Shown: piece after piece, positions 30,251 to 45,649 of the stretch
Numbering within the stretch: position 1 is the first letter of the stretch
Layout of the letters: every line of letters begins with the position of its first letter
Program-made: the position numbers and the translations under genes
NCBI GenBank assembly: GCA_039714595.1
Contig: JBDLJA010000001.1
Location: 20,459 to 84,458, forward strand
Direction: 5' to 3'
DNA: 64,000 nt
From: Thermodesulfobacteriota bacterium
Lineage (GTDB): Bacteria > Desulfobacterota > Desulfobulbia > Desulfobulbales > SURF-16
Notes under the pieces: generated by a model
Seen by the model: the letters and a program-made list of their open reading frames with translations, nothing else
Database searches by the model: none
What the model was told of the DNA's origin: nothing

Positions 30251-30481
30251 GGATTCTCCAAGATTAGCTAAAAAGACCCTAGGCACCGCTCTAAGATTAT
30301 AATCAGACTGTGGCTAACTATTATAGATGACCTAAATAAAGCGTGCATTAAAATTTCAAGGGGGAGTTAATATTGACTTATTAATAAATTATGCTTAACT
30401 TTAGAGATTCATAAAATTGAAAACCCAATTTACCGGTCCAGCACTGCGACCAGTAACCGTACAATAACAGGAGGATTTTTC

Positions 30482-30811
30482 ATGTTAGAAGTTACATCTC
30501 TCGCAATCGAGAACCTTAAAAGCTATCTGGAGCAGAATAATATCAATTCTGCCATCCGCATCGCTCTGATGCAGGGCGGCTGAGCTGGCCCCTCCCTGGG
30601 CTTGGCTCTGGATGAGTCAAAAGATAATGATGAGATAGCAGAACACGATGACCTTACCTTTCTGGTTGAGAAAAGTCTCATGACCAGCTGTGGTGACATA
30701 AAGGTCGATTTCATGGATGCCGGGCCGCGCTCAGGCTTTGCCATCTCGTCCACAAATCCGTTAGGCGGTGGTGCATCTGGCTGTGGCAGCTGTGGCAGCT
30801 CCTGCGGCTAA
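30482..30811 (+). CDS. HesB/IscA-like selenoprotein (in-frame UGA at 30581-30583 read as Sec)
   Basis: AGGAGG (30469-30474) sits 7 nt before ATG 30482. 33 codons (MLEVTSLAIENLKSYLEQNNINSAIRIALMQGG) run into TGA, and the same frame continues as AGPSLGLALDE...IKVDFMDAGPRSGFAISS...GCGSCGSSCG. GG-U-AG aligns with the conserved GGC(A/S)G Cys of HesB/IscA. A stable hairpin begins at the UGA. Confidence 0.8.
30582..30608 (+). promoter_or_regulatory. SECIS-like stem-loop for the HesB-like gene
   Basis: GAGCUGGCCC-CUCCCU-GGGCU(U)GGCUC: a 10-bp stem with one bulged U, starting at the GA of the UGA codon. Confidence 0.55.
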
Positions 30812-30830
30812 CCCCCCTTAACTCGCGATA

Positions 30831-30875
30831 AAAAAATCCCGTTTCAGCCTGGCCTGAAACGGGATTTTTTATTTT
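30831..30875. terminator. Bidirectional rho-independent terminator shared by the convergent genes on either side
   Basis: Perfect 13-bp stem AATCCCGTTTCAG (30835-30847) / CTGAAACGGGATT (30854-30866), with an A-run upstream and a T-run downstream. Confidence 0.85.
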
Positions 30876-31086
30876 AAGATCCGCAGCTGGCCATAACCTC
30901 TTCCTGCCACTGCTCAATCTGCTCCTCATAGAACCTGGCGTCACTTTCCATCCCGCACTCCAGGCAGGACACGCGGGCGAAAGCTCAACGCCCCTTAAGG
31001 ACAGCCCTGCCCCGGCAATAGATACAACGCAAGACCAACTCCAACTCCGCCCAACCCGCCGCCTCTCTGGTGCAATCCTGTGCCAT
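30874..31086 (-). CDS. Candidate small Zn-ribbon (CxxC...CxxC) protein with an in-frame UGA (possible novel selenoprotein)
   Basis: My translation from ATG comp(31084-31086), preceded by AAGGGGTGG: MAQDCTREAAGWAELELVLRCIYCRGRAVLKGR-UGA-AFARVSCLECGMESDARFYEEQIEQWQEEVMASCGS-TAA. The stop abuts the bidirectional terminator, and a 40-nt hairpin follows the UGA. Not in the ORF track. Confidence 0.35.
30944..30983 (-). promoter_or_regulatory. 40-nt stem-loop immediately 3' of the UGA in the Zn-ribbon ORF (SECIS-like)
   Basis: CUUUC-G-CCCGC-[GU(G)UCC-UGCCU-GGAGU]-GCGGG-AUG-GAAAG, starting 1 nt after the UGA. Confidence 0.4.
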
Positions 31087-31610
31087 TATTACCACCCCTT
31101 ATTTTAAACGAGACAACTTCCCCGGCCCTCCCTCACCCCTTGCCCATCTCTTTTGCTAACACAGACCGGAATTTCTGGCAGCAGAGAAGAGAGTAAATCA
31201 AGAAAAAGTTAGACAAAAGCCACCTTGTCTGGTGATTAAAATGAATAGCCATTCACAAAGACAAAATAGACTTGACAGCGACCTAATAGTATGATTTTCT
31301 GCTGCACGCAAGAGGTCCATAAGCGTTCATTAAATTGTTGAAATTGTAATTTTGCCAAAAGCTTACAAACTACACTTCAACAGAGTATTGGACCCCTTAA
31401 CTTTTGACTTATATGTAAAGCGGGCAACGAGACAGAGCGTAGCCTCCCCCCTAAACCAGGGGAGATATATCTGTCCAGTCCTTACATAACTTATTGCAGT
31501 TGTTAATTATTATTGCCATCGTGGCAGGCTGCCTTAATAAAGACCATGCACCAAAGGCAACACCAAGGTCTAACGGCTGGCTACCTGGCACCACTGAAGG
31601 GAGAGATATA

Positions 31611-32369
31611 ATGAAAGTTGATGATCTGGAAAAGCTCAAGAACGAAGGTGTAGAGAATCTTCCTTCTGAGGAACGGCGCCGCTTCCTGCAATTTGGCCTA
31701 ACCGTAACCGGCGTCTTCCTGGGCGGTTCCGTCCTGTCGCTGACCTCCGCAGGCAATGTTCAAGGCGCTGTGGGCGGCATGAAACCGGCCAGCAAGTTTC
31801 CTTACAACCCGCATTACACCATGGTTATCCGCCAGAACCACTGTGTGGATTGTGAGCTCTGCAAAGACGCCTGTGTCGCCACCAATCATGTTCCTTCCTA
31901 CGGCTACCGGACCACCATCCTGGAGCGGGAGCGGGCCATCGGCCCCGACGCTACCGAGCGCATCTTCATGCCAGTCCTCTGCAATCACTGTAACCGTCCT
32001 CCCTGTGTTCGGGTCTGCCCCACCACGGCGACCTTTAAGGACAAGAAGACCGGCATCGTTATGATGAACACCAAGCGCTGCATCGGTTGCAAAACCTGTA
32101 TGGCAGCCTGCCCTTACAATGCCCGTTATTTTGATGAAGACAAGCGGACCATCGACAAGTGTAACTTCTGCGTCGACACCAAATTAAAAGAGAGCGGCGG
32201 CAAGATCACCGCCTGTGCTGAGGCGTGCCCGGCCAATGTCCGTATCTTTGGCGACCTTGCCGATCCCAGCAGCGAGGCCTATAAACTGATCCATTCACCC
32301 GAGAAGGTGGTATGGGTACTGCGTCCGGAGACAGGCGCCCTGCCCAACGTCTTCTACATGAATGACTAA
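31611..32369 (+). CDS. Tat-exported 4x[4Fe-4S] ferredoxin-type subunit (NrfC/PsrB/DsrO/HybA family)
   Basis: Start at MKVDDLE (ATG 31611, GAAGGGAGAG SD). Twin-arginine signal SEERRRFLQFGL. Four Cys clusters (CVDCELCKDAC, CNHCNRPPC, CIGCKTCMAACP, CNFC...CAEACP). Confidence 0.85.
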   Translation: MKVDDLEKLKNEGVENLPSEERRRFLQFGLTVTGVFLGGSVLSLTSAGNVQGAVGGMKPASKFPYNPHYTMVIRQNHCVDCELCKDACVATNHVPSYGYRTTILERERAIGPDATERIFMPVLCNHCNRPPCVRVCPTTATFKDKKTGIVMMNTKRCIGCKTCMAACPYNARYFDEDKRTIDKCNFCVDTKLKESGGKITACAEACPANVRIFGDLADPSSEAYKLIHSPEKVVWVLRPETGALPNVFYMND

Positions 32370-32485
32370 GGATAGATTTCTACCTCGCCCGCAGTTAAGG
32401 GAAAGAAAAAATATTGTCTGGATATCTCCCCTGCCCTACCAGGGTCAGGGGAGATAACAGAACAGTAGGTTTGGAGAGAAAAACA

Positions 32486-33178
32486 ATGAAAGATAAGAAG
32501 ATGAAAAACATTCTGCTTGGCGCCCTTGGCACCATATTCTGCCTGGGTTGCGTCACCGCCAGCCTTGCTTCAGCTCCTAAGAAGGGTGGGGAGACGGTAA
32601 TCCATAGCCATGGCGACACCCAGATCATCGCCGAAAAGCCCACTCGCGAGATGTTCAGCCACGCCCTCCACTTTGGCCAACTGGATTTAAGCTGTGACTC
32701 CTGTCACCCCGACACCTTCCAAAAGAAGCGTGGCGCGGCTAAGGCCAAGGGCGACTACACCATGAAGGCGTTTGCCGAGGGTAAGTATTGCGGGACCTGC
32801 CACGATGGCGACACCGCCTTCAGCGCCAACTCCCAGTGCTCCAGCTGTCATATCGCCCCCGAAAAAGAGAACATGTACTTCAACAAACCGGCCAAGACGG
32901 TTGAGTTTGGCCACAAGGCCCATATTGACATGGGCCTGGAGTGCGAACAGTGTCACAACGAAAAGGGTTTTGAGATGCGTTCCGGCGCAGCCGAAGAGCA
33001 TCCTGAATCCTTCACCATGCAGGCCCTCTATGACGGCAAATATTGCGGCTCCTGCCACAATGGCGATGACGCCTTTGCCTCCAACACCCGCTGTACCGTC
33101 TGTCACATCGGGGTTAAGGGCTTTGACCGCCTGAACGGTGGCGACTCTGGCGCTGCCGGCCACGGTGGTGGCCACTAA
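32486..33178 (+). CDS. Periplasmic hexahaem c-type cytochrome built from two c7-type trihaem modules
   Basis: Start at MKDKKMKNILL (ATG 32486, GGAGAG SD) with a signal peptide. Six CxxCH motifs: CDSCH, CGTCH, CSSCH, CEQCH, CGSCH, CTVCH. The pattern GKYCG(T/S)CH(D/N)GD.AF..N..C..CHI occurs twice. Confidence 0.85.
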   Translation: MKDKKMKNILLGALGTIFCLGCVTASLASAPKKGGETVIHSHGDTQIIAEKPTREMFSHALHFGQLDLSCDSCHPDTFQKKRGAAKAKGDYTMKAFAEGKYCGTCHDGDTAFSANSQCSSCHIAPEKENMYFNKPAKTVEFGHKAHIDMGLECEQCHNEKGFEMRSGAAEEHPESFTMQALYDGKYCGSCHNGDDAFASNTRCTVCHIGVKGFDRLNGGDSGAAGHGGGH

Positions 33179-33229
33179 GATAAAGTCAACTTAAGGGGCA
33201 GATCAGCCCCACTAGCCAAGACTTTTATG

Positions 33230-33288
33230 AAAAAGACCGTCTCCCCCGCCTTTAAGGCGATCAAGGGGTAGGCGGTCTTTTTATTTTC
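33230..33288 (+). terminator. Rho-independent terminator after the cytochrome gene
   Basis: AAAAAGACCGTCTCCCC (33230-33246) pairs with GGGGTAGGCGGTCTTTTT (33265-33282) with two mismatches, followed by TTTTTATTTT. Confidence 0.65.
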
Positions 33289-33592
33289 AGCCCCCACACT
33301 TGCAAATCATCCCTTCATATCTTCTGCCCCCCAACCGCCCCTGGCCCCTCTGGCCCGCAATCACCCCTTTTAGCCAATAACCGCCGCAATCTCCACCTGC
33401 TCCATCAATATCCAGTCTACGCTGTTCGGCCACTTTTGCGCCCGCCTGCCGCAGCCAAAGACGCAAAACACTCCCAGCCCCTGCAAATTACCTGCCCCCC
33501 GCCACTGTCAAACAACTGTGGCAAAGACAATGAACAACGTATTCCGGGCCAGTTAGCCCACAAGTATATTTTTTCAACCGACCTCCTTCTTG

Positions 33593-33609
33593 TGGCACAC
33601 CAGTTGCAT
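33593..33609 (+). promoter_or_regulatory. Sigma-54 (-24/-12) promoter for the nrfD-like gene
   Basis: TGGCAC-ACCAG-TTGCAT matches the TGGCAC-N5-TTGCW consensus exactly, with correct GG-N10-GC spacing. It lies about 110 nt upstream of ATG 33719. Confidence 0.7.
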
Positions 33610-33718
33610 TGCTAGCTGGCATTAATTGCTAACCCAAGTAATTGTCACTGGTCCCAGGGCGACAACTCCCCTTTTGCCGGTGACCACTTTAATTCCCTTA
33701 TTTGAGGAGGAGTAGAAA

Positions 33719-34906
33719 ATGGCTGATGGATTCTCTTTGGCTGCCACAGCGGAACCAACAGTGGCAACCCCAAAGCTCAACACCTACACGGGCGTCTTTG
33801 CCCTGATCGCCCTGATCGGCGTCACTGCCGGTCTCTATGGCTTTTTCGCCGGGCATCATCATATCTATAACAACACTCGGGAGATGCCCTGGGGTATTCT
33901 CATCTCAACCTACGCCTTCCTGGCCATTACCTCCACCGGCCTCTGTGTCCTGGCTGCCATCAGTCACATCTATGGCGGCACCAAGCTGGCGCCTCTGGCC
34001 AATCGCATGGTATGGCTGTCGCTGATCACCATTATCGGCGGTTTTACCCTCATCGGCCTGGAGCTTGAAAACCCCTGGCGCATGGCGATCTACAACATCC
34101 TCACCCCCAACCTTACCTCCAACATCTGGTGGATGGGTACCCTGTACGGCCTGGCCGTGGGTATGATGTTTGTCGAGTTCTACCTGATCCTGACCAAGCA
34201 GTATAAATGGGCCGTGGTCCTGGGTGTCATCGGCGCCCTGGCCGAGATGGCAGCCAATACCAACCTGGGTTCCGTATTCGCCTCCCTGGCTGGCCATCCC
34301 TTCTGGTTCGGCGCTCAAATCCCCATCTACTTCCTCGGTTGCGCCTTCCTCTCTGGCGCTGCTGCCACCATCCTCTTCACCTTCCTGGCCATGAAAATGC
34401 GGGATAGGGAGATCGATAGTGACACCATGGCCGCCTTCCAGACCGGTGGCAAGGTAATGGCCCTGGCCCTGCTCCTCATCGGCATCTCCACTGCCTGGCG
34501 CTACATCAACCTGATGAGTGGCGGCGCGGAACAGGCCCGTCTTGGTGCCCTGGCCATCCTGAACGGTCCCCTCTCCTTCAACTTCTGGGTATTTGAGATT
34601 GCCATCGGCATGATCTTCCCCTTAGGCCTGCTGGTTGTGACCAAGTTCAAGAGCGCTCCGGCCCTGGCCTTCTCCGCCTTTATGATCCTGGTGGGAATGT
34701 TTATCTCCCGCTACGACATGGTTGTAGCCGGGCAACTGCCGCCGGTCTATGGCGGCCTGGACAGCCACCTGCCCGCCCTCTTCACCTACGTCCCTTCTCT
34801 CTTTGAGATCCTGGTAACCGCAGGCGGATTCGGCATAATTGGTGCCGCCTTCCTGCTGGGTGAGCGTCTGTTTGGTCGCGCCTTTGACGACCACGGAGCC
34901 CACTGA
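33719..34906 (+). CDS. NrfD/PsrC-family integral membrane quinone-interacting subunit
   Basis: 395-aa polytopic ORF. The N-terminal REMPWGILISTYAFLAITSTG motif is typical of NrfD-like proteins. GAGGAGGAG SD. Confidence 0.8.
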   Translation: MADGFSLAATAEPTVATPKLNTYTGVFALIALIGVTAGLYGFFAGHHHIYNNTREMPWGILISTYAFLAITSTGLCVLAAISHIYGGTKLAPLANRMVWLSLITIIGGFTLIGLELENPWRMAIYNILTPNLTSNIWWMGTLYGLAVGMMFVEFYLILTKQYKWAVVLGVIGALAEMAANTNLGSVFASLAGHPFWFGAQIPIYFLGCAFLSGAAATILFTFLAMKMRDREIDSDTMAAFQTGGKVMALALLLIGISTAWRYINLMSGGAEQARLGALAILNGPLSFNFWVFEIAIGMIFPLGLLVVTKFKSAPALAFSAFMILVGMFISRYDMVVAGQLPPVYGGLDSHLPALFTYVPSLFEILVTAGGFGIIGAAFLLGERLFGRAFDDHGAH

Positions 34907-34928
34907 GCCAAGTGCGCCTTAGGCCATG

Positions 34929-34994
34929 GTCCCGGGGATAAGCCCGGGACCCGAAGCGATCAGGCCCCGCCTCTTAGCGGGAACTGATCGCTTC
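34929..34994. repeat. Two adjacent perfect GC-rich hairpins between nrfD-like and merR-like genes
   Basis: GGTCCCGGG/CCCGGGACC (34929-34952, 9 bp) and GAAGCGATCAG/CTGATCGCTTC (34954-34994, 11 bp, with an inner CCCGC/GCGGG stem). No U-run follows. Confidence 0.6.
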
Positions 34995-35045
34995 TCCCCT
35001 GTCACCTGATATTTGCCCCGGCTTGGGGCAGAGGAATCAAGCAAG

Positions 35046-35414
35046 ATGCTGCCAGACGACAAACCGGTCTTCACCATAGGCGTTGCCGCCAAGATGCTCG
35101 AGGTTCATCCCCGCACCCTGCGGATCTATGAGAAAGAGGGGCTGATTAAGCCCTTCCGTAAGGGGAAATGGCGCTACTTCACCATGGATGACATCAAATG
35201 GGTGGAGTGCTTACGCTCCATGATCCACGACAAGGGCATCTCCATTGCCGCGATCAAAAAACTGCTGCAATATACGCCGTGCTGGAACATAACGGATTGC
35301 GCCTTTGATAAACGCAAGCAGTGTACGGCCTTCATGGCCAATGGCATGGTACCGCGCAAGATAGAGGTGAGCCAGCCGGACAAAAAGATCGCCAACCTCC
35401 ACGATCACCGCTAG
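35046..35414 (+). CDS. MerR-family transcriptional regulator with a C-terminal Cys cluster
   Basis: Start at MLPDDKPVFTIG (ATG 35046, GAGGAA SD). HTH FTIGVAAKMLEVHPRTLRIYEKEGLI. C-terminal CWNITDCAFDKRKQC. Confidence 0.8.
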   Translation: MLPDDKPVFTIGVAAKMLEVHPRTLRIYEKEGLIKPFRKGKWRYFTMDDIKWVECLRSMIHDKGISIAAIKKLLQYTPCWNITDCAFDKRKQCTAFMANGMVPRKIEVSQPDKKIANLHDHR

Positions 35415-35533: not shown

Positions 35534-35848
35534 TCAATCCTTCTTATCTTCTTGCATGCGCGTCATATACTCCTCCCACTCATAGGGGAGAAGGTTCTTC
35601 TTCTTACTGTTACACTCCTTACAGGCACAGACTAGATTACCCTTACTGCTGGTTCCCCCCCGGGCCAGGGGCTGCAGGTGGTCCATGGTCAGCTGGGCCG
35701 GCTTGAAATGGCCCTGGCAGTAATAACAGGTACAGGCCGCAAGCTTATTCTGCCACCAGCGGCTCTTCCTGAGATCCCTCGCCTTTTGCCGCTCCCTCCG
35801 GATTACCGCCTCATCAACCCCATCAAAGAAATAGTCGTCTCTAGCCAT
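35534..35848 (-). CDS. Small HNH endonuclease-family protein
   Basis: 104-aa ORF. CYYCQGHFKPAQLTMDHLQPLARGGTSSKGNLVCACKECNSKK (HNH with two CxxC pairs). Confidence 0.8.
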   Translation of the reverse strand: MARDDYFFDGVDEAVIRRERQKARDLRKSRWWQNKLAACTCYYCQGHFKPAQLTMDHLQPLARGGTSSKGNLVCACKECNSKKKNLLPYEWEEYMTRMQEDKKD

Positions 35849-44284: not shown

Positions 44285-45649
44285 CTATTCGGTGATGGAA
44301 CAGTCGTTACCGTCGCACTCCACCTCGGCCATGAGAAAATAGGCGTTGTAATCACGCTTCTTCAGCTCTTTATAGGCCATCTCGGCCCGGGCACCGGTGG
44401 TGCAGTGGATAAAGATCTTCTGACCCTTGTCCACATTTTTGATCCGGCAGATGAAGTTATCCATCTCCTTGCACAACTCATCCAGGGGGATATGCTGGGA
44501 GGTCTTGAACTTGCCTTCGGCAACCTCATCCCTGGTCCGGACGTCAAGGACAATCGCCTTGGAGGGATTTTTCAAGGCGGCCTCAAATTCAGCCACGGAG
44601 ACCTCGCCTTCACCCAGGATACGGACCCAGGTCACCTCGGTATTCACCGGTCCCTTCTTCAGGGTGCCACCCACCCTCTTCCAACCACGGAAACCGCCTT
44701 CCACCAGGGAGACCTTCCTATAACCCTCTTCGCGCAGCTTCTTCATGGCGGCCAGGGTATCTTTATCCTTGTCGCTGTAGAGGACCACCGGCGCCTTCGT
44801 GGGGATATCCTCCCAGAGGTCATCCGCCATAAAATCCTTGAAGGGCATGTTCACCGAACGGGGGATGCGGGACTCGGCATCGGCCTTGGCACTGCGGAGA
44901 TCGACAAGGACGATGTTTCCGCGGCAGACCCAGCCGTAGTTGGCGTAGGTGGGATAACCCGCCTTCTGCCAGGCCGGCTCACCTTCGAGCATTACTTTGA
45001 TATTTTTATAACCTGCTTTGACCGCCTGACCGGCGGACTTGGGGCTCATGCCTCAGGTGGGCCCTCCACAGTAAAAGACAAGCAGTTTATTCTTGTCCTT
45101 GGGCAGGTTCTGCAAAAGTTCCTGCATCTCACAGACCGGGATGGAGATCGAGCCAGGGAGATGGGAGGCGGCATAGCGCTTGCCAGGCCGGGAATCAACG
45201 AGGAGAAAATCCGCGTTCTTGTCCTGTAAGGCCTTGACATCCTTCGCACTTATTTTCTCCACGCCAGGCGGCAACTTGGCCAGCTTGGGCTTGATATTCG
45301 TGGCAAAGGGCTTGCCGTCCCGCATCTCATAGGCGATGATGGCGGCATGGCCCTTGGAGGCATGCTCCACGCCCGTGGTGGCCTCGTCAAAGGAGACCAT
45401 GACTGTCTTGGCCTTGGCCCCCTTGCCCACCTGAATGGAAATCTGCTTGGCCTTGTTGGACTTGCCAACGACCTTGCCCTTATACACCTTTTGCTGTTTT
45501 TTCTGCGTTGCAGCAGCAGCCGGAGCAGCGGGTGCGCTAGCGTCAGCAGCCTTGGTCCCACCACCGCCGCCAGTGGCGCAGCCGGTGAGGAGCAGAGCAG
45601 TAAGGGCCAGGGCTGGCCCTGTGCCTTTAAGAATTGACGTAAAGTTCAT
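44285..45649 (-). CDS. Triple-rhodanese lipoprotein, selenocysteine-containing (in-frame UGA at comp 45053-45055)
   Basis: Track ORFs 45053..45649 and 44285..45049 are in the same frame, separated by TGA plus one Gly codon: LLVFYCGGPT-U-GMSPKSAGQAVKAGYKNIKVMLEGEPAWQKAGYP. The junction lies inside a single rhodanese fold. AAGGAGG SD, signal peptide with LLTGC. Third domain has HCTTGARA. Confidence 0.75.
45022..45036 (-). promoter_or_regulatory. SECIS-like hairpin core for the rhodanese gene
   Basis: mRNA CCGCC-GGUCA-GGCGG starts 16 nt after the UGA. The GGU-containing apical loop resembles the E. coli fdhF SECIS loop (GGUC). Confidence 0.55.

Follow-up and report, generated by a model that had tools for sequence, protein, structure and literature searches.

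Modules that combine a cytochrome, an iron-sulfur (FeS) protein and an integral membrane subunit of the NrfD family are of a known kind, represented by alternative complex III (ACIII), DsrJOP, Nrf, Qrc, Hmc and the DsrOhPh-tetrahaem locus (PMC13047784). As presented in two reports (PMC13047784, PMC10926707), this last locus, which includes a small transmembrane protein, occurs in cable bacteria and some Desulfobulbales and is a candidate ACIII. The Desulfobulbales include sulfur disproportionators and relatives of cable bacteria, and how the quinone pool is connected to periplasmic cytochromes in these organisms is an open question according to the first of these reports (PMC13047784). Here, we describe a window of 64,000 nucleotides (64 kb; this name is used below for the whole stretch that was analyzed) from a Thermodesulfobacteriota bacterium of the Desulfobulbales (GenBank assembly GCA_039714595.1, contig JBDLJA010000001.1, positions 20,459 to 84,458). 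It carries genes for an FeS protein, a hexahaem cytochrome c, an NrfD-like subunit and a MerR-family regulator, next to two small selenoprotein genes, which we call HesB-Sec and CxxC-Sec (Sec, selenocysteine). All six genes had been listed in an initial annotation of the window; each was found by listing and translating the open reading frames (ORFs), at or near the position first proposed. That annotation regarded them as one selenium/redox functional unit. We favor, with more confidence than doubt, a different reading, in which two unlinked selenoprotein genes lie beside a Desulfobulbales quinone-cytochrome module with a co-transcribed, Cys-rich regulator. The module reaches the thresholds of none of the named complexes.

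Relatives of the module were collected by scanning GTDB, one genome per species, with an alignment of NrfD homologs, which yielded 531 confirmed relatives; the best 79 loci, all from Desulfobulbales, were kept with flanks of up to 10 kb per side. When every protein of the neighborhood was searched against these 79 loci by tblastn, matches were obtained for NrfD in 79, for MerR in 73, for the cytochrome in 63 and for the FeS protein in 62, with 0 for HesB-Sec and 0 for CxxC-Sec. Neither selenoprotein gene was detected within ±10 kb of the module in any of the 79 loci, by tblastn or by a scan for the pattern CXXC-U-CXXC. HesB-Sec relatives were retrieved by a scan of metagenomes (n = 26), and module genes were never found at the 11 closest HesB-Sec loci; the neighbor kept there was a divergently transcribed pfk gene (9 loci out of the 11). 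Only one locus, L082, had CxxC-Sec beside HesB-Sec, in the order UvrD-FolC-HNH-pfk-HesB-CxxC, and no FeS, cytochrome, NrfD or MerR gene was detected on its 7.6-kb contig. The closest relative that bears the module, L001, encodes an NrfD protein 86% identical to that of the window and has a PilZ gene upstream of the FeS gene, with HNH-FolC-UvrD downstream, as in the window. Because the selenoprotein genes were absent from all 79 module loci, because HesB-Sec is linked to pfk, and because in L082 and L001 one group occurs apart from the other, we conclude that the juxtaposition of selenoprotein genes and module is specific to this genome. It is a chance neighborhood of two independent things. 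The functional unit initially proposed did not survive this check across the Desulfobulbales, in which the synteny was not kept beyond this genome, and a tempting but false lead is thereby removed.

Both small UGA-containing genes are genuine, and NCBIfam already curates their families. The HesB/IscA-like gene HesB-Sec (positions 30482..30811, plus strand; 109 codons), which lies outside the respiratory module, carries an in-frame UGA read as Sec at 30581-30583 and encodes a protein of the form MLEV...MQGG-U-AGPSLG.... Its score against NF038090 (IscA_HesB_Se) was 141.5 bits, above the cut-off of 85, and the match covered residues 1-102 of 109. Among the 26 metagenomic relatives, the codon aligned to the UGA was TGA in 13 and TGC or TGT in the other 13, within the GG-[U/C]-xGP site of the family. 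A hairpin resembling a selenocysteine insertion sequence (SECIS) was found 3' of the UGA (UUGGCUC-UGGAU-GAGUCAA, 30602..30620, plus strand). Its consensus, GGCUC-UGGAU-GAGYC, lies 23 nt past the UGA, and all five core pairs were present in 14 of 14 Sec forms versus 1 of 13 Cys forms, with a compensatory U-A pair in one locus (L098). Judged from this pattern, the hairpin behaves like a bacterial SECIS, though without an Rfam match: no SECIS and no other RNA family was detected at the gathering threshold in the whole window, in which no tRNA or selC gene was found either. The Sec residue of HesB-Sec is confirmed by the TGA/Cys pairs at the same codon together with the retention of the hairpin in the Sec forms, as the initial annotation had proposed. 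HesB-like selenoproteins have been on record since 2006 (Zhang et al. 2006, PMC1794560), and by its score and the position of the Sec/Cys exchange, HesB-Sec is a full member of NF038090.

The second gene, CxxC-Sec (30874..31086, minus strand; 70 codons), is convergent with HesB-Sec, and a perfect inverted repeat of 17 bp lying between runs of A and T (30831..30870) forms a bidirectional terminator common to both. This small dual-CXXC gene contains a UGA read as Sec at 30987-30985, within CIYC-x9-U-x6-CLEC. The convergent zinc-ribbon ORF with a UGA codon that had been annotated here is upheld: it resembles NF041197 (CxxC_Se_CxxC), from which it differs by about 20 additional N-terminal residues, and its single ortholog, in L082, has CLFC-x9-U-x6-CRSC, with the TGA, the frame and the residues on both sides kept, in agreement with the motif of the family. 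A regular expression for this pattern, run on six-frame translations of 105 loci, returned only the window and L082. Speaking against the assignment, the match to NF041197, which spans profile positions 1-47 of 53, reached 32.1 bits (E 9.7e-8) where the cut-off is 40; a word-indexed protein search with U changed to C gave no homologs; and a hairpin predicted in the window had no counterpart in L082 that could be recognized as a shared SECIS. Taken together, the sequence evidence makes CxxC-Sec a probable divergent member of NF041197.

The module itself starts with the gene for a PsrB/NrfC/DsrO-like FeS protein (31611..32369, plus strand; 252 aa), which has a twin-arginine motif (RRRFLQF) for export by the twin-arginine translocation (Tat) system and four Cys clusters. 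Its scores were 174 bits for TtrB, 171.8 for NrfC and 165.7 for DsrO, all under the respective cut-offs. The best solved relative was PsrB (2vpw_B, E 1.6e-40), and ActB was also matched; the protein consists of ferredoxin domains only, with no molybdopterin-like domain. The following gene (32486..33178, plus strand) encodes a periplasmic cytochrome c whose two c7-type trihaem domains together contain six CxxCH motifs. It matched TIGR04257 in two stretches (125 bits, cut-off 40) and PF14522 (100 bits), which places it among c7-type cytochromes, and it matched GSU1996 (3ov0, E 2.4e-49), to whose type both trihaem domains belong; ActA (8k9e_A) was a weak match. The integral membrane subunit (33719..34906, plus strand) belongs to the NrfD family, with 85.1 bits for PF03916 (gathering threshold 25.8). 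Its AlphaFold2 model had a predicted local distance difference test (pLDDT) score of 79.6 and a predicted template modeling score of 0.84, and in a fold search it aligned best with the ten-helix ActC (8k9e_C, 6btm_C and 6f0k_C; template modeling scores of 0.80-0.84, E ~1e-10), followed by ActF. Motifs and domain scores agree, for each of these three proteins, with what had been initially annotated.

To map the locus, all ORFs of the module loci were clustered, with L080 as the annotated example; the synteny counts below include only copies with sufficient flanking DNA. The canonical Desulfobulbales locus starts with FtsH (minus strand), a paralogous NrfD (type B, about 42% identical) with its own MerR, a sigma-54 activator (minus strand) and sometimes PilZ. 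These are followed by the FeS gene, a c7 cytochrome gene with three or six haems, an ORF-poor spacer of about 0.5-1.3 kb, a 75-aa ORF with a single transmembrane helix, the type A NrfD gene and MerR. The locus of the window is a reduced version, with FeS, six-haem cytochrome, NrfD and MerR. The FeS and cytochrome genes were located 5' of the type A NrfD gene in 57 copies out of 63. MerR directly followed NrfD in 71 of 75 type A copies and in all 38 type B copies (109 out of 113 for both types together), and Desulfobulbales genomes have two paralogous versions of the NrfD-MerR pair. Four loci of one sub-clade (L031, L050, L069 and L078) exhibited the FeS gene, NrfD and, for the cytochrome, a gene encoding 326 aa; the long spacer, the sigma-54 site and MerR were all lacking, and another set of conserved genes (clusters c17, c16 and c15) came next. 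These four MerR-less loci support a three-protein complex of FeS protein, cytochrome and NrfD.

Several variants of the locus were observed. The small ORF between the sigma-54 promoter and the type A NrfD gene encodes about 75-80 aa with a single transmembrane helix (L080, 9575-9802) and forms a cluster, sm5, present in 37 loci. It matched no family. Neither the window nor L001 has it, and in both of them the promoter lies 110-175 nt from NrfD. Two tandem units of small ORF, NrfD and MerR were found in L020, with one sigma-54 site each, and two type A NrfD genes in tandem in L059; these tandem copies suggest a recent duplication of the unit. The metagenome-assembled genome GMC6.metabat2.200 carries two type A NrfD-MerR copies on separate contigs (L001 and L002). 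As in the window, one of these is accompanied by FeS-cytochrome and lacks the small ORF; alongside the second copy are the small ORF, PrmA and DUF748 genes, and a sigma-54 activator 7.5 kb downstream. By analogy, the genome of the window probably holds a second NrfD-MerR copy and the activator elsewhere. Further downstream in the window, a free-standing gene for an HNH endonuclease (35534-35848, minus strand; 104 aa, PF14279/PF01844, with matches resembling the HNH domains of IscB and Cas9) is located directly upstream of folC, and the HNH-FolC-UvrD arrangement is common to the window, L001 and L082.

Upstream of the FeS gene, we identified the palindrome TGAATAGCCATTCA (31242-31255, plus strand), the only TGAAT-N4-ATTCA in the 64 kb and a candidate operator of the FeS-cytochrome operon. 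A sigma-70-like site, TAGACT-N17-TATGAT (31267-31295, plus strand), lies 3' of TGAATAGCCATTCA and about 310 nt before the ATG; common to the window and L001, it is a candidate promoter of the two genes. With one mismatch or none, TGAAT-N4-ATTCA was present upstream of the FeS gene in 25 of 61 loci, versus 3.6% in the background. The same motif was not enriched upstream of NrfD (3 of 73 type A and 3 of 38 type B copies, versus 3% in the background). A single regulon-wide MerR box of this sequence for all three units was rejected, its enrichment being confined to the region upstream of FeS. In the spacers that the initial annotation had suggested searching for a MerR palindrome, TGAATAGCCATTCA lies before FeS and a degenerate palindrome, described below, before NrfD; a common MerR box was not supported. 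The predicted leader of the FeS transcript (31296-31610, about 310 nt) contains an imperfect inverted repeat (31325-31342 and 31376-31393) and matched no Rfam family. Another, perfect palindrome, AACTACAC-N2-GTGTAGTT, was found in five closely related loci only (L003, L005, L007, L009 and L010; 1.33 Mb searched), about 205-370 nt upstream of FeS and downstream of its promoter-like site; the window has one half-site (~31368-31377). From this distribution, it looks like a clade-specific operator. The FeS-cytochrome unit ends with a hairpin followed by a T run, resembling an intrinsic terminator (33230..33290, plus strand).

A different type of promoter precedes NrfD. The sequence TGGCACACCAGTTGCA (33593..33608, plus strand), located 110 nt before the NrfD start, is the only perfect TGGCAC-N5-TTGCW in the 64 kb and corresponds to a sigma-54 (-24/-12) promoter. 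Of the 80 type A NrfD copies, 49 had a sigma-54 site with at most two mismatches in the 450 nt before the gene, versus 6% of random windows, and a 1.3-kb search raised this to 67 of 80; for type B NrfD, a site within 450 nt was found in 1 copy out of 38. In related loci aligned on the promoter, two palindromes, GGCGCA-N3-TGCGCC, were observed about 150-210 nt upstream of it; this paired layout is classical for enhancer-binding proteins and makes them candidate sites. The copy in the window is degenerate (GGCCACTTTTGCGCC, 33428..33442, plus strand). Upstream of FeS, the sigma-54 site and GGCGCA-N3-TGCGCC were absent, with a match in 1 locus out of 61. A gene for a sigma-54 activator with PAS domains was adjacent to the module in 47 of the 79 loci. 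This activator (L080, 4787-7246, minus strand; cluster c2) is about 800 aa long and has three to four PAS domains, the last three of which each contain a conserved C-x8-10-C-x3-C motif (for example, SCNIIFKSNICGADC); this motif suggests that they sense a metal or an Fe-S cluster. On the basis of the site itself, its conservation and the upstream palindromes of its relatives, NrfD and MerR of the window are predicted to form a sigma-54-dependent operon, with a degenerate palindrome and no activator gene in the window.

Between NrfD and MerR, a spacer with GC-rich hairpins and no T run (34907..35045, plus strand) had a folding energy of -73.7 kcal/mol over 142 nt in the window. The corresponding spacers of L001-L079 measured 50-200 nt, and a very stable GC hairpin of unconserved sequence was present in all of the type A and type B folds displayed; most of the remaining loci also had strongly negative folding energies. 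These features suggest that NrfD and MerR are one operon, whose intercistronic RNA structure may set the NrfD:MerR ratio. The spacer between cytochrome and NrfD contains the terminator as well as the sigma-54 promoter, from which we predict that FeS-cytochrome and NrfD-MerR are transcribed separately.

The regulator (35046..35414, plus strand) is a short MerR-family protein resembling HspR and GlnR, with four conserved Cys (WVEC...PCWNITDC-x7-C), and the Cys-rich end first annotated, CWNITDC-x7-C, is correct. It scored 66.2 bits against HspR (NCBIfam NF047375, cut-off 105), below membership, and its neighbors are NrfD, HNH and FolC. Scores against the metal and redox sensors of the MerR family (MerR, CueR, ZntR and SoxR) were 21-31 bits, far under their cut-offs; SoxR has the Cys pattern CIGCGC, unlike the PCW-x4-C-x7-C found here. 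GlnR and TnrA were the best solved relatives in the PDB. The AlphaFold2 model showed only short helices at residues 67-74 and 87-98, with no long helix past the winged helix. The four Cys were invariant in 51 close homologs and kept in the type B copies shown. A profile search against 1.84 billion cluster representatives returned 313 clusters at E ≤ 1e-10; among the top 150 of these, 108 had PCW-x4-C-x6-8-C, either strictly (85) or in a looser version. Source annotations label the homologs only as MerR or HspR, and full-text literature searches returned no description of a link between NrfD and MerR or of this Cys-rich regulator family.

In the reading that we favor, the Tat-exported PsrB/DsrO-like FeS protein and the periplasmic c7-type cytochrome would bind the ActC-like NrfD on its periplasmic side. 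We infer that the three proteins may form a minimal quinol:cytochrome c oxidoreductase of the ACIII/DsrJOP type, or one working in reverse, which would connect the menaquinone pool and periplasmic cytochromes in either direction. Of the proposal in the initial annotation that electrons pass to or from the quinone pool in the periplasm, the part that concerns the module is retained: FeS protein, cytochrome and NrfD look periplasm-facing and quinone-interacting, and MerR belongs with them; a link of the selenoproteins to it is not supported. The FeS-cytochrome unit would be expressed from the sigma-70-like promoter with its conserved palindrome and end at the terminator, and the sigma-54 promoter with its PAS-domain activator would gate the supply of the membrane subunit. 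This activator is presumably the enhancer-binding protein encoded next door in most relatives, and in this genome it would have to be encoded elsewhere. The co-transcribed regulator probably senses redox, metal or Fe-S status through its Cys motif, whichever of these provides the ligand, and would tune the module; the palindrome before FeS is a weak candidate for its target.

Several observations weigh against this reading. No close relative of the module has been solved or characterized, and all of its subunits fall below the curated Nrf, Dsr, Qrc, Hmc and Ttr cut-offs; a search of the PDB with the NrfD sequence gave no match. NrfD is predicted to be in a different transcription unit from FeS-cytochrome, and the type B NrfD-MerR pair is not directly preceded by FeS and cytochrome genes belonging to it, which raises the possibility that NrfD is not a simple anchor. 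We found no enhancer-binding protein in the window, just as the small transmembrane ORF, PilZ and a type B NrfD-MerR pair were not found there, and only the right half of GGCCACTTTTGCGCC is intact. The assignment of the FeS-upstream palindrome to MerR is weak, with 25 of 61 loci and no enrichment before NrfD. Finally, the Cys tail of the regulator was modeled with low confidence (pLDDT below about 55).

Other explanations were weighed against the same data. All six genes might form one selenium-dependent redox unit, in which HesB-Sec and CxxC-Sec would assemble or sense FeS and haem cofactors under the control of MerR; their physical adjacency in this genome, the annotation of the HesB/IscA family as Fe-S carriers and the four clusters required by the FeS protein are in line with this. 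We regard it as highly improbable, given that neither selenoprotein gene occurs in any of the 79 module loci, that HesB-Sec is tied to pfk instead of the module, and that the two gene groups separate in L082 and L001. A bidirectional terminator and a gap of about 520 bp from CxxC-Sec to the FeS start also set them apart, and HesB-Sec and CxxC-Sec lack an export signal, in contrast to the exported FeS protein and cytochrome. It is quite unlikely, too, that the MerR gene encodes an ordinary HspR-type heat-shock repressor that is parked 3' of NrfD and unrelated to the module. HspR was its best NCBIfam match (66 bits) and homologs are annotated as "HspR", but this score remains below the cut-off of 105, chaperone genes are not nearby, the adjacency of NrfD and MerR is kept in two paralogous pairs in about 80 genomes, and the conserved four-Cys tail lies outside the match to the HspR model.

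The regulator also figures in an alternative in which NrfD and MerR are primarily a signaling pair. NrfD would convey the quinone-pool redox state, or a membrane stress, to the C-terminal tail of the regulator, by analogy with the tails of TnrA and GlnR that read out glutamine synthetase, and the FeS-cytochrome operon would be the target of the pair, not its partner. The pairing of NrfD with MerR is tighter than that with FeS (109 of 113 versus 57 of 63 copies), the type B pair lacks FeS and cytochrome genes immediately upstream, and the two gene sets are apparently separate transcription units; the GlnR/TnrA relationship of the regulator and the palindrome before FeS point the same way. On the other side, the NrfD model matches the fold of ActC, which oxidizes quinol, four loci keep FeS-cytochrome-NrfD without MerR, contact between NrfD and the regulator is a conjecture, and the Cys tail is unmodeled. 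On balance, we consider this alternative, a serious competitor of the favored reading, unlikely. Equally tentative, if marginally less doubtful to us, is the idea that NrfD-MerR is an undescribed membrane-to-DNA redox-sensing device, in which the regulator would read the state of the quinone pool, or the electron flux through the ActC-like subunit, by means of an Fe-S cluster or thiol switch in its four-Cys tail and control the FeS-cytochrome operon.

A third selenoprotein gene, unrelated to the module, was observed at 44285..45649 (minus strand; 454 aa), with its UGA at 45055-45053. It encodes a lipoprotein-like protein with three rhodanese domains, the first of which has Sec in its active-site loop (FYCGGPT-U-GMS). 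Its similarity to TsoB and to the LYCAU family of rhodanese selenoproteins stays below the cut-off of both; for NF041203, the rhodanese-related (seleno)protein model, which it resembles, the score was 77.5 bits (cut-off 115). A scan of the window for further genes with in-frame UGA codons was too noisy to add candidates. The initial count of three recoded UGAs in 64 kb is correct. The "very high density" deduced from it has not proved exceptional, given that two of the three genes are adjacent and that deltaproteobacterial selenoproteomes are large (PMC1976440).

What remains in the favored reading is a compact respiratory module of the ACIII/DsrJOP type, conserved in the Desulfobulbales, whose predicted split into two transcription units, one of them sigma-54 dependent and containing a Cys-rich HspR-like regulator, provides testable regulatory handles. 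The C-terminal Cys motif recurs in many MerR-type proteins, all of them apparently unstudied; if the redox-sensing device were real, this regulator would be the first characterized member of a broad, unannotated PCW-x4-C-x6-8-C MerR family of at least 100 clusters at 50% identity. The statement in the initial annotation that no described system has this composition is true only of the accidental set of six genes, as the selenoprotein families are curated and cytochrome/FeS/NrfD modules are known. What is new here is the variant of the module, and our literature searches returned no description of its link to a regulator; the selenoprotein families were already known.

Among the known regulators, HspR and TnrA/GlnR share with this protein a winged-helix N-terminal domain, the lack of a long helix after the DNA-binding domain in the model, and a C-terminal tail that is likely sensory. 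They differ from it in that PCW-x4-C-x7-C and the fourth Cys lie outside the stretch that matches their models, and in that its genomic partner is an NrfD membrane protein, not chaperone or glutamine synthetase genes.

Among the respiratory complexes, QrcABCD is distinct from the module, for which QrcC scored 97 bits (cut-off 400) and QrcA 28 (cut-off 180), with no QrcB. Assignment to NrfABCD is likewise not warranted, with scores of 171.8 for NrfC (cut-off 377.6) and 35.1 for NrfD (cut-off 347.6) and neither NrfA nor NrfB. With PsrBC, NrfCD and TtrBC more generally, the module shares an FeS protein that is closest to PsrB and scores 172-174 bits with the NrfC and TtrB models, as well as the NrfD Pfam domain. 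It differs from these systems in that PsrA, NrfA and TtrA are not nearby, in that the larger ActC was matched and PsrC was not among the fold matches listed, and in scores under the equivalog cut-offs. For DsrMKJOP, scores fell short both for DsrO (165.7, cut-off 200) and for DsrP (26.8, cut-off 350), and there is no dsrMK nearby. The module nonetheless resembles DsrJOP and the DsrOhPh-tetrahaem locus, as portrayed in PMC13047784 and PMC10926707, in its Tat-exported FeS protein, its NrfD-family protein and its small multihaem cytochrome, in standing apart from dsrMK and in occurring in Desulfobulbales. A small ORF with a single transmembrane helix, similar to that reported for the DsrOhPh-tetrahaem locus, is also present in many relatives of the module. 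This comparison is by description only: four haems are reported for that locus, versus three or six of the c7 type here, the gene order differs, and the consulted passages of the two reports mention neither a MerR gene nor a sigma-54 promoter.

ACIII contains both ActC and ActF, whereas a single adjacent NrfD-like subunit is found here, and ActB has molybdopterin-like and FeS domains, whereas the FeS protein of the module is devoid of the former. No ActD, ActE or other Act genes were found at the locus, and identity is only 14-17%, which places the module outside ACIII proper. It is like ACIII in the fold match of its membrane subunit to ActC, in the combination of a periplasmic FeS module with a c7-like multihaem cytochrome, and in its presumed function as a quinol:cytochrome c oxidoreductase.

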